Of a stretch of 49,436 bases of DNA, positions 20,372-24,261 are shown in pieces (within the stretch, counting starts at the first letter, position 1; the number at the start of each line of letters is the position of its first letter). The notes beneath the pieces are model-generated. The model was not told the origin of the DNA. It worked only from the letters and a program-made list of their open reading frames with translations, and did no database searches. The translations under genes and the position numbers were made by a program. Source of the stretch: an uncultured archaeon (GTDB taxonomy: Archaea > Aenigmatarchaeota > Aenigmatarchaeia > PWEA01 > JAGHBM01); NCBI GenBank assembly GCA_964640225.1, contig CAZXFI010000005.1, positions 14,749-64,184 of the forward strand, written 5' to 3'.

Positions 20372-20606
20372 TGGTGGGCCCGGGGAGAAACTCAAGGGAA
20401 CTTTTGCGGAACGCTCGGCGTTCCGAAGTTCTTGGAACATAACGTGTTCCAAGTTTTGCGATACAATCGCAAAATCTTTCCCTAAAGGCTTTCTTTTGAA
20501 GAAAGGCTTTTTGAACTCCCGTCTGAGGCTGTTTCTGTCACGCACCCGTTAGGCAGGCGTTAGACACCCAAAGCCCCGATGCTAGACCAAGCTACACTAC
20601 AGGCCC
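20372..20606 (-). tRNA. tRNA-Pro(TGG) with two introns: 37/38 (20531..20566, 36 nt) and 59/60 (20389..20509, 121 nt); CCA encoded
   Basis: Spliced: GGGCCTG TA GTGT AGCTTGGTCTA GCAT C GGGGC TT TGG GA GCCTC AGAC GGGAG TTCAAAT CTCCC CGGGCCC A CCA; BHB-like junctions. Confidence 0.9.
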
Positions 20607-20655
20607 TTCGCCTTGCTGTTAGGAATACTTTAAGTATGAATTATTTAATATTAAT

Positions 20656-21165
20656 ATGCTTGAAGGAGTGCTTGCTTACGGGGTTTCCCCCAAGCTGGTC
20701 TATGGCATGGGGTTCATGTTTTTCACGCTCCTGGTGGCCTCGGTGAGCGACCTGAAAAGGATGACCATAAAGGCCGAGTTCATGGCCATGTGGCTGGGTT
20801 TTTCCGCAATCATGCTCTTCCATGACTACACAACGGGGCTGGAGTACATCTGGTGGAAATGGCTTTTCATAATAGGCCTGGGGTTGCTTTCGTGGAAGGG
20901 CACGGGAAAGATTTTCTCCCTTGCCCGCGCGGACGTGGTGGCGGTCTCCGCGGTGTGCTCGGTGCTTGAAATCCCGTACATAATACTTTTCTACATAATA
21001 CTGTTACTGGTCAACAGGGTGAGCATCTACCCCCTGAAGATTTTCGGCAAGGCCAACCGCTACCCGTTCATGCCGGTTATATGGTTCTCTTTGCTTGTTT
21101 TGATATTCATTCTGGGAATAATAGAATGGGAAAAACTCGCAGAACTTTTGGCAGGTCTGTTTTAG
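20656..21165 (+). CDS. Prepilin/preflagellin peptidase-like (A24) membrane protein
   Basis: SVSDLKRMTI and ARADVV aspartate motifs, YPFMPVI motif. Confidence 0.75.
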   Translation: MLEGVLAYGVSPKLVYGMGFMFFTLLVASVSDLKRMTIKAEFMAMWLGFSAIMLFHDYTTGLEYIWWKWLFIIGLGLLSWKGTGKIFSLARADVVAVSAVCSVLEIPYIILFYIILLLVNRVSIYPLKIFGKANRYPFMPVIWFSLLVLIFILGIIEWEKLAELLAGLF

Positions 21166-21174
21166 CCGTGAAAT

Positions 21175-21507
21175 TTAAAAGCTTTTTTTCAGGGACTCCA
21201 GAATGCCTGAAAGGTAAATCCCCGCCAAAATCAAAATCCCCCCCGTCACGCCTTTCAGAGTCCCGGAAAGCGACTCTATTAAACTGAGAACGACTGTCAC
21301 GAAAATTATTGCAGAGAAATACAAAACCATGATGAGAAGGAATATCACGTCGTGCTGATAGTCTTTGAATTCCCTGTAAACGAGCCAGAAAAATACGATG
21401 ACAGAGAAAAGTATCACAAGATAGACCAAATCCGGGGCTACCAGCGCGGCCAGCAGCACGGTTCCCAGAACCAGCAATATTTTTCCCAGTTCTTTTCTTA
21501 CCAACAT
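21175..21507 (-). CDS. Hypothetical membrane protein (about 4 TM)
   Basis: Hydrophobic ORF co-oriented with the HIT gene. Confidence 0.65.
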   Translation of the reverse strand: MLVRKELGKILLVLGTVLLAALVAPDLVYLVILFSVIVFFWLVYREFKDYQHDVIFLLIMVLYFSAIIFVTVVLSLIESLSGTLKGVTGGILILAGIYLSGILESLKKSF

Positions 21508-21511
21508 GGAC

Positions 21512-21967
21512 TCACTTTTTCCTGCGCTTTTCTTTCCTTATTTCCCCTTTAAGCATGCCGTGTATTTTCCTGAAGTCATTTTCCCTTATTTTCTTGTTTT
21601 TCCAAACCTCTATCTTTATCTGGTCCCCCCTGTCCCTGGGTATCACGTGGTAGTGGGCGTGGAATATACACTGCCCCGCGCTCTTTCCGTCATTCAGAAG
21701 AATGTTGCATCCCTCGTGGGTTCTTCTCAGGACCCTTGCTATCAGTATAACATGGTCCGTTAGCTCGTGGTGCACGTACTTCGGTATGTCCTCCACGTAC
21801 CTGTAGTGCTTCTTTGGTATGACCAGTATGTGCCCGTCCTCCTTCTCGGGAAAGCTCATTGACAGGAAGGACACGGTGTTCTCTGTCACGTTAAGGGGCA
21901 TGAAAGGCAGGCCATTCATCTGGATTTTCCTTTTCCCGGTCACGAAATCGCAGAATATGCATGACAT
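21512..21967 (-). CDS. HIT family hydrolase
   Basis: CIFC, GHILVIPKKH, AGQCIFHAHYHVIPR. Confidence 0.95.
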   Translation of the reverse strand: MSCIFCDFVTGKRKIQMNGLPFMPLNVTENTVSFLSMSFPEKEDGHILVIPKKHYRYVEDIPKYVHHELTDHVILIARVLRRTHEGCNILLNDGKSAGQCIFHAHYHVIPRDRGDQIKIEVWKNKKIRENDFRKIHGMLKGEIRKEKRRKK

Positions 21968-22000
21968 GTTTAATATTTGAACCTGAAATTTAAAAATAAG

Positions 22001-23092
22001 TTACTTCCTGCGAACTTCAATGCTCCCGTACTTGCCGATTATTTTGCTCATTTTTCCGTGGTCCCTTCCGGACAAAAGGGTTATTGCAGTCCCTTTCTTG
22101 CCCTTGCGCGCGGTCCTACCCACCCGGTGGGTGTAGGAGTCCACGTCGTCGTTCAGGTCGTAGTTGAACACGTGAGTTATGTCCTCAATGTCCAGCCCCC
22201 TTGCAGCCACATCCGTGGCCACCAGAACGTCAATTTTCCCCCTGGAGAACTTTTCCAGAATCTGCTCCCTCGCGTGCTGGGTCATGTCCCCGTTCATGCA
22301 CTCGGCCTTTATGCCGTTCTTCCTCAGGACGTGAGCCACTGTGTTCGTTCTTCTCTTGGTGTTGCAGAAAACAAGCGTGAGGCCCCTGTCTTCCTTCTTC
22401 AAAAGCCTTATTAGAAGGTCAAGCTTTTCCCTGTCGTTCACGTTGTAATAGTACTGTCTGAGCACCCCGCCTTCCAGGACGTTCTTGAGCATTATTTTCG
22501 CCGGGTTCCTCAGGTATCTCTCGGCCAGGCCTATTACCCTTGAGTTTATCGTGGCGCTGAGCATGACGCTCTGCCTTTTCCCGGGCAGGTGGCTGATTAT
22601 GGCGTTCATGTCCCTGATGAAGCCCATGTCCAGGAGCCTGTCCGCCTCGTCTATAACTAAATAACGGGCCTGGGAAAGGTCCAGCGCTCTCCTCCTGATA
22701 AGATCCAGGAGCCTTCCCGGAGTCCCGACCACTATGTCGGCGCTTCTTACTTCCCTTATCTGGTTCTCTATGGAGACTCCCCCGTAAACCGTGGCTGTTT
22801 TCAGGTCGTTGTTTCTGGAGAACTTTATATATTCCCCGGCAACCTGCTTGGCCAGCTCCCTTGTGGGAGTGATTACAAGTGCCTGAACGTTTTTCCCGTG
22901 GTTTATCTTTTCTATCATCGGCACCGCGAAGCCTATGGTCTTGCCGCTCCCTGTCTGGGACTGCACGATAACGTCTTTCCCGCTGAAAATCAGCGGTATG
23001 GCCCTTTCCTGAACCTTTGTGAGCTCTTTTATTCCGTGCCTGTGCAGCTCTTCCAAAAGCTCTCCGTTTATCTTCAGGTCTCTGAATTTCAT
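22001..23092 (-). CDS. DEAD-box RNA helicase
   Basis: QTGSGKT, PTRELA, DEAD, SAT, ARGLD, HRVGRTAR. Confidence 0.97.
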   Translation of the reverse strand: MKFRDLKINGELLEELHRHGIKELTKVQERAIPLIFSGKDVIVQSQTGSGKTIGFAVPMIEKINHGKNVQALVITPTRELAKQVAGEYIKFSRNNDLKTATVYGGVSIENQIREVRSADIVVGTPGRLLDLIRRRALDLSQARYLVIDEADRLLDMGFIRDMNAIISHLPGKRQSVMLSATINSRVIGLAERYLRNPAKIMLKNVLEGGVLRQYYYNVNDREKLDLLIRLLKKEDRGLTLVFCNTKRRTNTVAHVLRKNGIKAECMNGDMTQHAREQILEKFSRGKIDVLVATDVAARGLDIEDITHVFNYDLNDDVDSYTHRVGRTARKGKKGTAITLLSGRDHGKMSKIIGKYGSIEVRRK

Positions 23093-23152
23093 CCTTATTC
23101 ACACTTCTATGCGGGTTATACAAAAAAGAAATTGATTTTTCAAAAAAGCTGT

Positions 23153-23353
23153 TTACTCTTCTACTTTTTCAACTTCTTCGGCCTTGGGTCCCCTGTCGCC
23201 TTCGACTATCTTGAAGGAAACCGTGTCGCCTTCCTGTATTGAGGCTCCTTCCTTCAGCCCGCTTTCATGGACAAAATAGTCTTTTCCGTCTTCGCCTGTT
23301 ACGAATCCGAATCTTTTCATAGTGTTGTAAAACTTTACTGTTCCTTTTGTCAT
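23153..23353 (-). CDS. csp: Cold-shock protein
   Basis: MTKGTVKFYN..KRFGFV...DYFVHES; AGGAGG RBS. Confidence 0.95.
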   Translation of the reverse strand: MTKGTVKFYNTMKRFGFVTGEDGKDYFVHESGLKEGASIQEGDTVSFKIVEGDRGPKAEEVEKVEE

Positions 23354-23689
23354 TTTAATCCTCCTGAATACCTCTAAATAAAAACATATATAAATACTTA
23401 TGTTCGCCAATTTTCTGGATTTTTGTGCCGCTTAAATCCTTTTTGGTGCAAATAATAACCGGGGTGTTAAATCTATCTCACGGAGGCTCGTCGTCAATGT
23501 GCGAATTTCTGAGTTACGATAAGTAACCCGTGATAAGGACGCTCCGGTACGCCCAGAACGAGCTGAAAATGTACAAGGAAATATCCATCAGCGGCTTTGA
23601 GGACAAGCAAATCAAAGACTAAACTTTCAAGCCAATGAAAAATCCGGTTTCTCCCGAGTATATTGCTGACAATCTTTAAAAGCCTGGAA

Positions 23690-23806
23690 TTACGGTTTGA
23701 TTTTTTTCCAGCCACAAGAAATGCATCTGTATCCTATTCTTCCTGTTACCAAAGAATGGCTGTCTTTGACTATAATGGCATCCCCACACAACGGACAATG
23801 ATTCAT
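23690..23806 (-). CDS. CPxCG-type zinc-finger microprotein (38 aa)
   Basis: Manual translation MNHCPLCGDAIIVKDSHSLVTGRIGYRCISCGWKKIKP; GAGGT RBS. Confidence 0.7.
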   Translation of the reverse strand: MNHCPLCGDAIIVKDSHSLVTGRIGYRCISCGWKKIKP

Positions 23807-23984
23807 ATATCCAACCTCAAATTATCTTTAAAAGAACAAAAAATATTCTCCACAATTCCTGAAAATCAAGAAAAAATGGTTCTTCATTCTTTATGCAATT
23901 ATTAGGGTTTTAAGCTTATTAAGCTTTAAAAAACCTGAAATCAGGCAAACCACGAATGAAAGCCGAGGCTCTGAACAAAAAGTA

Positions 23985-24261
23985 TGGAGCCTCAGGGGGG
24001 ATTCTCAAGTGGATTCAAGATGGGAAAACTCTCCGAGTTTTCCAAATTCTTTCCACGAGTGCTTTCTTTTGAAGAAAGGCCTCTTTTGAACCCTCGACCT
24101 TTACCTTTTTGTTAATGGCCAAGCCAGTTTCCGCTGGCGCTTTACGCTGAGTAAAGGGCCATACCAAGGTAACGCTCTCCGCCGAGCCAAAGAGTTTTCT
24201 CTTTCCCTTAAGGGTTTCTCTTTTTCAAAAGAGAAAGGCTTACCGACTGAGCTACTGAGGC
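23985..24261 (-). tRNA. tRNA-Thr(GGT) with three introns: 20/21 (24179..24241), 37/38 (24107..24161), 59/60 (24002..24084); CCA encoded
   Basis: Spliced: GCCTCAG TA GCTC AGTCGGTA GAGC G TTACC TT GGT AA GGTAA AGGTC GAGGG TTCAAAT CCCCC CTGAGGC T CCA. Confidence 0.88.

Follow-up and report, generated by a model that had tools for sequence, protein, structure and literature searches.

A recurrent leader with a mirror-image purine tract at the introns of tRNA and rRNA genes in an uncultured aenigmatarchaeon

How archaeal tRNA introns reach new positions is an open question, and a 2026 preprint on Asgard archaea found no general route. The closest described systems are the non-canonical tRNA introns of archaea, including the 59/60 intron of ARMAN-2. 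As set out in the parts of PMC3239211 used for this comparison, these introns lie at position 59/60 and in the D-loop, can occur several to a tRNA, have strict or relaxed splice motifs, recur in similar form across tRNA genes, and go together with a splicing endonuclease and RtcB. All of these traits are likewise present in the genome of an uncultured member of the Aenigmatarchaeota, from which we analyzed a stretch of 49,436 nucleotides (nt) (GenBank assembly GCA_964640225.1, contig CAZXFI010000005.1, positions 14,749 to 64,184 of the forward strand), referred to here as the window. Between positions 20372 and 24261, the window carries two interrupted genes on the minus strand, for tRNA-Pro and tRNA-Thr, and three of their introns begin with related leaders. 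We read these three leaders as copies of a portable folded RNA cassette that lies next to RNA processing sites, in the part that is discarded, with a probability of roughly 0.5. In this genome, a defined sequence module marks the introns that move.

The leaders share a 19-mer, CCTTTCTTCAAAAGAAAGC, that is exact at 20488-20506 and at 24061-24079, both on the minus strand. With up to 3 mismatches allowed, the 19-mer has 3 matches in the window against 0.07 expected, and none of 100 shuffles reached 3. An earlier note on this DNA, made from the letters alone, had described three introns with homologous leaders and a 20-bp identity between two of them. All three leaders read as it wrote them, and the 20 bp are the exact 19-mer with a preceding G that is also common to both sites. 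The note had further placed a hairpin right after the 5' splice bulge, followed by GGAAAGA. The position of the hairpin holds, as each hairpin starts 1 to 2 nt past the 5' cut; GGAAAGA proved to be the start of a mirror tract that had been overlooked.

Each leader is composed of a short stem formed with the flank (P0), a pyrimidine arm (Y0), a loop, a purine arm (R1), a spacer, and a second purine tract (R2), all on the minus strand in the window. The Pro 59/60 cassette (20475-20509, 54.3 bits with a covariance model of the cassette) comprises the 5' strand of P0 (20507-20509), a C (20506), Y0 CTTTCTT (20499-20505), the loop (20496-20498), R1 AAGAAAG (20489-20495), the spacer CCTTTAGG (20481-20488), and R2 GAAAGA (20475-20480). 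Here R2 is the mirror of R1 at 6 of 7 positions, AAGAAAG being followed by GAAAGA-U. The Thr 59/60 cassette (24047-24084, 55.8 bits) has the 5' strand of P0 within 24080-24084, a C at 24079, Y0 at 24072-24078, the loop at 24069-24071, R1 at 24062-24068, the spacer CACTCGTG at 24054-24061, and R2 GAAAGAA at 24047-24053; AAGAAAG is mirrored as GAAAGAA at 7 of 7 positions. The Thr D-loop cassette (24195-24240, 41.4 bits) contains Y0 TTTCTCTTTT (24227-24236), R1 AAAAGAGAAA (24215-24224), a spacer (24205-24214), and R2 AAAGAGAAAA (24195-24204). Its R2 mirrors R1 at 10 of 10 positions, a match that takes in an extra GAG.

An alignment of 20 cassette copies, all from the source genome, gives a constant order of flank, C, Y0, a loop of 3 to 5 nt, R1, C, an 8-nt spacer, and R2. 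Y0 pairs with R1, and P0 arises where the bases that open the intron past the 3-nt 5' bulge pair with the spacer's first half, usually with a C-C mismatch between P0 and the hairpin. The pairs of P0 vary with the local flank (AAAG/CUUU, GAG/CUC, AAGG/CCUU, GAAG/CUUC, and ACAAGC/GCUUGU). Taken together, P0 and the hairpin are 86.7% paired across the alignment, 6 of the 11 pairs change on both sides, and their covariation score was reached in 0 of 500 shuffles. The spacer is self-complementary (88.9% paired, with two covarying pairs), and its self-pairing would form a fold-back turn.

R2 is the mirror image of R1, not its complement, over the full length of the arm. To quantify this relation, we searched the genome in full for perfect hairpins whose 5' arm is purely pyrimidine and whose arm sequence is asymmetric, and looked within 20 nt downstream for either the reversed purine arm or the arm itself. 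For stems of at least 9 bp, the source genome holds 34 asymmetric hairpin-orientations, 11 with a perfect mirror (10 of them at an offset of exactly 8) and 0 with a perfect direct repeat; for stems of at least 7 bp, the corresponding numbers are 104, 18, and 0. The loci of relatives gave 63 perfect mirrors and 8 perfect direct repeats among 224 asymmetric hairpin-orientations with stems of at least 7 bp. The second spacer measures 8 nt in 16 of the 18 perfect copies of the source genome, and the first loop 3 to 5 nt. The 124 copies with at most one mirror mismatch contain 35 different R1 sequences. Each R1 is perfectly mirrored by its own downstream tract in 81 of these 124, against a mean of 20 and a maximum of 31 when the downstream sequence is swapped for that of a copy with a different R1 (1000 permutations). 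Run-length patterns as different as [3,2], [3,4], [4,3], [5,3], [2,5], [3,1,4], and [3,2,2] are all mirrored. The mismatches in R2 are a G>C change at the first position in 32 of 61 cases, which is uninformative on the type of triplex. In one D-loop copy (C3:30908-31010, plus strand), the mirror tract GAAAGAAAA is intact and lies about 55 nt further downstream owing to two inserted hairpins.

Because Watson-Crick pairing, duplication, and inversion yield reverse complements or direct repeats and never mirrors, this relation suggests a three-stranded fold. A mirror tract that covaries with a helix arm is the mark expected of a strand that runs antiparallel alongside that arm, and the comparison of copies points to such an arrangement. 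The block order of pyrimidine, purine, and mirror purine is also that by which class II intrastrand triplexes are defined, the 3' purine block being in the terms of Holder et al. 2015 a reverse-Hoogsteen strand. We considered Watson-Crick pairing of Y0 with R2 and rejected it: it is open to the self-mirror core (C-Tn-C with G-An-G) alone and not to the distal A-run, which tracks the length of the loop-side T-run, and such pairing would predict a direct repeat, of which the source genome has none. Pairing between the loop and the bases that follow R2 is slight. Among the matches listed, 123 unique pattern-scan copies have a mean longest helix of 3.18 against 2.74 in permuted pairs (standard deviation 0.07, maximum 2.98 of 500), a signal that comes mainly from bacterial copies; in the window, such pairing comes only to UUUG or UUGG against UCAA.

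We used the covariance model to search the source genome (1.17 Mb, 116 contigs) and obtained 24 matches at E<=1e-3 and 38 at E<=1. The stricter set is in sense orientation in 23 of 24 cases and, with the flanks read by eye, lies entirely within or beside tRNA or rRNA genes. By the same reading, the sites in tRNA genes are T-loop introns, D-loop introns, and one further intragenic position. Matches also occur in an intron of the 16S rRNA gene after GACUGAAAC and at both ends of an intron of the 23S rRNA gene after GGUAGCGUAA, where the 3' copy is inverted. Further cassettes lie in tRNA trailers, beginning directly after the CCA of several tRNAs or after the discriminator base. The cassette thus occupies the start of bulge-helix-bulge introns (tRNA T- and D-loops, 16S, and 23S) and the position directly after tRNA 3' ends. 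The earlier note had taken it for an element of tRNA introns, which proved too narrow, as rRNA introns, trailers, and other genomes carry it too. The model search inside and outside tRNAs that the note had proposed recovered the motif in other introns. The inverted 23S copy (C1:179925-179978, plus strand) sits just before the 3' splice site; in RNA, its blocks follow the order pyrimidine, pyrimidine, purine, the classical layout of the U.A-U type.

The tRNA genes themselves were counted with our own script, which returned 47 candidates with an encoded CCA. Eight were dropped for 5' ends that are not tRNA-like, and the Thr gene of the window was added by hand, leaving 40 genes. A 59/60 intron with bulge-helix-bulge spacing interrupts 33 of the 40, and the central 4-bp helix of these introns pairs at 4/4 positions in 23, 3/4 in 9, and 2/4 in 1. 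Eight of the 33 have the leader type of the window; 15 have a CCUUUU/AAAAGG hairpin followed by UUUCCC and an A-run that tracks the length of the T-run; 4 have a short CUUUUU/AAAAAG hairpin; and 6 have no such hairpin. ARAGORN with intron search finds 9 tRNA genes genome-wide, against about 40 by our script. Standard tools miss nearly all of the tRNA genes, so the tRNA sets of such genomes are under-annotated, and the cassette model could help to find the missing ones.

The processing machinery of the source genome includes one match to the catalytic domain of splicing endonucleases (PF01974; 92.7 bits, in an open frame of about 190 amino acids), RtcB (565 bits), RNase Z, and RNase P RNA. The rRNA genes are heavily interrupted (C1:176500-187500), the large-subunit gene measuring 3929 nt against a model of 2987 positions and the small-subunit gene 1810 against 1478. 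In the same region, RNase P RNA spans 372 nt against 288 in its model, and the interval between 16S and 23S contains, on the opposite strand, a tRNA-Ala gene interrupted by a 41-nt intron.

In the unspliced window, ARAGORN calls no tRNA, and Rfam has zero matches at gathering score; at E<=10, a search over 20000-24600 returned only chance matches to eukaryotic families. The tRNA-Pro(UGG) gene (20372-20606, minus strand, encoded CCA) has two introns. One is a 36-nt anticodon-loop (37/38) intron at 20531-20566 that lacks the cassette and is conserved in the orthologs of four congeners. The other is a 121-nt T-loop (59/60) intron at 20389-20509 with the leader cassette and three hairpins, a bulge-helix-bulge candidate with a fold z of -4.93. 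The tRNA-Thr(GGU) gene (23985-24261, minus strand, encoded CCA) has three introns, namely, a D-loop intron of about 61 nt with approximate boundaries (24180-24240), a 55-nt anticodon-loop intron without the cassette (24107-24161), and an 83-nt T-loop (59/60) intron (24002-24084). Computed removal of the two Pro introns leaves a 78-nt sequence that ARAGORN calls tRNA-Pro(TGG), and removal of the three Thr introns leaves a 78-nt tRNA-Thr(GGT). ARAGORN is permissive under such brute-force splicing, giving some tRNA call for 145 of the 164,828 variants tried for Pro and 1,243 of the 430,309 tried for Thr. Because it accepts many D-loop boundaries, the 20/21 position of the Thr D-loop intron is approximate.

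The Pro 59/60 junction forms a strict bulge-helix-bulge: the central helix UUCA/UGAG is paired at 4/4 positions, the bulges measure 3 nt, and the outer helix has 5 bp. UUCA comes from the T-loop and UGAG from the intron, and the outer helix is the T-stem. The Thr 59/60 junction shares the 4/4 UUCA/UGAG helix. The Thr D-loop junction has a central helix UCGG/UCGG with two G-U pairs and a non-contiguous outer helix, which makes it a relaxed splice motif. Between the two tRNA genes, the region 21520-23360 (minus strand) holds, as judged by eye, a putative cold-shock-like small gene (MTKGTVKFYN...), a putative DEAD-box helicase gene (VIDEADRLLDMGF), and a putative HIT-like gene.

Cassette-bearing introns turn over quickly at a given site, by exchange or replacement. 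Over 91 nt, the Pro 59/60 intron shares 95% identity with the intron at 59/60 of another tRNA gene (C11:14378-14469), and a 38-nt stretch after the leader is 100% identical; two genes on contig C9 have introns that are 100% identical over 57 nt. One and the same leader is found in D-loops, in T-loops, and at rRNA sites. Four congeners have tRNA-Pro orthologs whose aligned exon parts are 82 to 93% identical and which keep the anticodon intron. At 59/60, one of them has an intron with the CCUUUU/AAAAGG leader, one has another variant of the leader type of the window with the arm pattern [3,3], and two have short unrelated introns, so that five congeners carry five different introns at this site of tRNA-Pro. 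One congener has an extra D-loop intron in tRNA-Pro, in which a [3,2,2] arm is again mirrored. Since sister genomes carry different family members at one site and a near-identical intron elsewhere, gain and replacement can be traced. The pattern matches the intron transposition of Thermoproteales (Fujishima et al. 2010, as cited in the parts of PMC3239211 used here).

These comparisons also bear on two further claims of the earlier note. The rest of each intron is not a different set of hairpins, as it had stated, for the introns are mosaics in which single hairpins are shared with other introns in differing combinations. Its view that the element spreads among tRNA genes fits the 95% identity between genes and the differing Pro 59/60 introns of congeners, which establish the exchange and not the mechanism of mobility.

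The cassette extends well beyond the source genome. The model matches 24 of 41 genomes of relatives, including all 7 other genomes of the family that were searched, and 44 of 141 genomes sampled from the phylum. Within the phylum, its presence is patchy by family, with matches in 7 of 11 genomes of one family (f7), 8 of 14 of a second (f23), and 0 of 27 of a third (f21). An exact-pattern scan of species genomes for one variant found at least 119 stretches. By record title, the archaeal records among the matches listed belong to Aenigmatarchaeota, Iainarchaeum, Micrarchaeota, Nano- and Woesearchaeota, Altiarchaeales, and Methanophagales, and the bacterial ones to Clostridiales, Patescibacteria, Nitrospirota, Nitrosomonadales, and others. 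In two archaeal loci, Rfam finds a tRNA immediately before the cassette, the trailer placement recurs in the Iainarchaeum and Altiarchaeales records, and no Rfam family matched over the motif at gathering score in 17 other loci.

The bacterial copies have features of their own. In copies of the Nitrospirota and Nitrosomonadales type, the bases after the mirror tract complement the hairpin loop and covary with it (loop and downstream partners UUCGCC/GGCGAA, GCGCGCCC/GGGCGC, and GCGUGCCC/GGGCAC). This complementarity points to a possible H-type pseudoknot, and the loci tested gave no Rfam family that covers it. Flavonifractor and other Clostridiales have several copies per genome of a larger repeat, in which the same hairpin and mirror tract stand between two G/C-rich hairpins. 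A link to neighboring genes was considered for the bacterial copies and dropped, the neighbors (Mur ligase, PNPase, SIMPL, and ORF6N) showing no pattern.

If the leaders are indeed copies of a folded RNA cassette, how might such a module act? P0 and the hairpin would supply the intron-side helix that flanks the 5' bulge, and with it the single-gene splicing endonuclease might be able to cleave introns that are long and unrelated, at positions other than the canonical one. R2 would turn back and lie against the hairpin as a third strand that runs antiparallel to R1, either in the class II layout with G.G-C and A.A-U triples or as a groove-bound strand as in pseudoknots, and would lock the U-rich and A-rich arms into one compact unit. 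Bringing their own 5' splice-site structure, cassette introns might be copied from one tRNA gene to another where the two have T-loop or D-loop sequence in common. The earlier note had suggested a splicing-helper hairpin. The flank-adapted P0 directly after the 3-nt 5' bulge agrees with that suggestion, which as to a role in splicing itself goes further than the observations do. More tentatively, the cassette might be a natural RNA triple helix, purine-motif or groove-bound, of 7 to 11 consecutive triples. It would be a portable module beside tRNA and rRNA cut sites across DPANN, giving relaxed-specificity splicing a ready-made 5' splice-site helix and so making introns copyable; we regard this fuller version as possible but rather doubtful. 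The function of the cassette, and whether it folds as RNA or as DNA, are in either case deduced from the comparison of sequences.

Several observations weigh against an RNA cassette of this kind. P0 and the fold-back turn need the same spacer bases and thus cannot both form fully, so that two states or a compromise must be assumed. In D-loop copies, the first R2 bases can alternatively pair with a downstream UUCC or CUUU, and the D-loop copy at C3:100954 has no R2. The cassette is not required for a 59/60 intron, as the 6 of 33 introns without a pyrimidine/purine leader keep the splice geometry. According to the parts of Holder et al. (PMC4666352) drawn on here, the purine motif does not form in RNA, so an RNA version would be unprecedented or would have to use another type of contact. 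Splicing, the triplex, and the helper role are moreover all predictions.

The RNA data on splicing are weak. None of 24 RNA runs contains more than 0.11 of the words sampled from the rRNA region. In all 4 of the 4 runs compared in detail, contigs (17 altogether) pass from one side of the predicted 84-nt 16S intron to the other with an exact join (likeness of 88% or more, with sides of 25 to 29 nt), and one contig per run skips the 41-nt tRNA-Ala intron. These contigs may be from other organisms, such as relatives that lack the introns; they identify the 16S stretch as an insertion and are not proof of splicing here. For the 23S intron and for parts without cover, the runs gave nothing usable.

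The main rival, which we consider unlikely, is that the cassette acts at the level of DNA. It would be an A/T-rich relative of the BoxC, PIT, and TMECO class II repeats that folds on the single-stranded sense strand during transcription or replication and promotes breakage and recombination. Such events would explain the fast turnover of introns at cassette sites, where five different introns occupy one site within one genus. In the parts of PMC4666352 used here, the block order is exactly the class II definition. Class II motifs are reported to form stable triplexes as DNA, at loci that show more rearrangement from one E. coli strain to another. The statement in PMC4666352 that purine motifs do not form in RNA favors DNA too, as does the abundance of the same motif in bacteria that have no introns. 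The TMECO elements, however, have no link to gene class or orientation in those parts of PMC4666352, whereas 23 of 24 copies here run in the sense direction and every copy falls within or next to a gene for a stable RNA. The sequence of P0 follows the bases flanking the RNA cut site, and the second spacer of 8 nt is beyond the 1- to 6-nt loops of the search by Holder et al. A candidate partner, a DUF559 nuclease, is matched in 2 of 41 genomes and not in the source genome.

A purely selfish family, in which the leaders are alike by descent from one proliferating intron, as has been proposed for Thermoproteales, and have no role of their own, seems more unlikely still. Near-identical intron pieces in different tRNA genes, introns built as mosaics of shared hairpins, and the patchy presence across the phylum (absent from all f21 genomes but frequent in f7) are what such a history would leave. 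Descent alone, however, cannot keep three strands matched through 35 variants of R1 or refit P0 to each flank, and the same architecture is found in tRNA trailers and in distant phyla. That the leader is instead a signal for some other factor (a protein site, a tRNA-like minihelix guiding RNase P or RNase Z to the 3' end upstream, a terminator formed by the T-runs of Y0, an exonuclease block, or a self-cleaving hepatitis delta virus [HDV]-like ribozyme of the theta type cutting at its own 5' edge) is very unlikely: trailer cassettes do begin directly after CCA or the discriminator base, P0 and the hairpin have in our reading the 11- to 13-bp length of an acceptor/T-arm minihelix, and theta ribozymes next to tRNA genes are on record in the part of the source used, yet Rfam 15, whose families include the HDV-like, hatchet, pistol, and twister ribozymes, gave no relevant match at E<=10 over 20000-24600 and none to the motif at gathering score on 17 other loci, RNase Z is present and makes a substitute unnecessary, a terminator within an intron would do harm, and no partner protein was identified. 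The predicted fold would also be without the nested double pseudoknot that marks HDV-like ribozymes. Readings as a kink-turn, a C/D box, or an HDV-like element were dropped on the ground that the conserved unpaired bases do not fit the respective consensus, a judgment for which the further comparison was with Rfam only.

Should the reading as a natural RNA triple helix be borne out, the cassette would be the first conserved RNA element common to tRNA introns, rRNA introns, and tRNA trailers, and a counterexample to the idea that RNA does not adopt purine-motif triplexes. The covariation of the three strands defines a specific structure that lends itself to testing, whether in RNA as a triple helix or in DNA as a triplex.

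Compared with the archaeal tRNA introns described before, the introns of the source genome differ in two respects: most of them open with a defined cassette of three matched strands, and the cassette also occurs in rRNA introns and tRNA trailers. The parts of PMC3239211 drawn on here mention no conserved leader, the supplementary intron tables lying outside the comparison. Likewise, we found no published description of the cassette in archaeal introns or trailers in a literature search that did not extend to the supplementary intron tables for ARMAN and Thermoproteales.

The class II motifs BoxC, PIT, and TMECO (Holder et al. 2015, PMC4666352) resemble the cassette in block order, in having many copies per genome, and in being widespread. 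As described in the parts of that paper used here, they are G/C-rich and intergenic, have no preference for orientation or gene class, and were studied as DNA; the words tRNA and intron have zero occurrences in the paper. The archaeal cassette, in contrast, is A/U-rich, nearly always in sense orientation, and found only beside tRNA and rRNA processing sites. It has an extra stem that pairs with the flank, and its 8-nt second spacer falls outside the rule of 1- to 6-nt loops.

H-type pseudoknots with an A-rich strand in the stem groove, such as those of the preQ1-I riboswitch and of frameshifting sites, provide the other point of comparison. As in these pseudoknots and in major-groove RNA triple helices (PMC13541005, in the part drawn on here), a purine-rich strand would run from the base of the hairpin to its loop, and in some bacterial copies the bases after R2 can pair with the hairpin loop. 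Unlike H-type pseudoknots, the archaeal cassette has at most a short candidate pairing between loop and downstream bases, and what its third strand mirrors is the identity of the bases and not their number alone.

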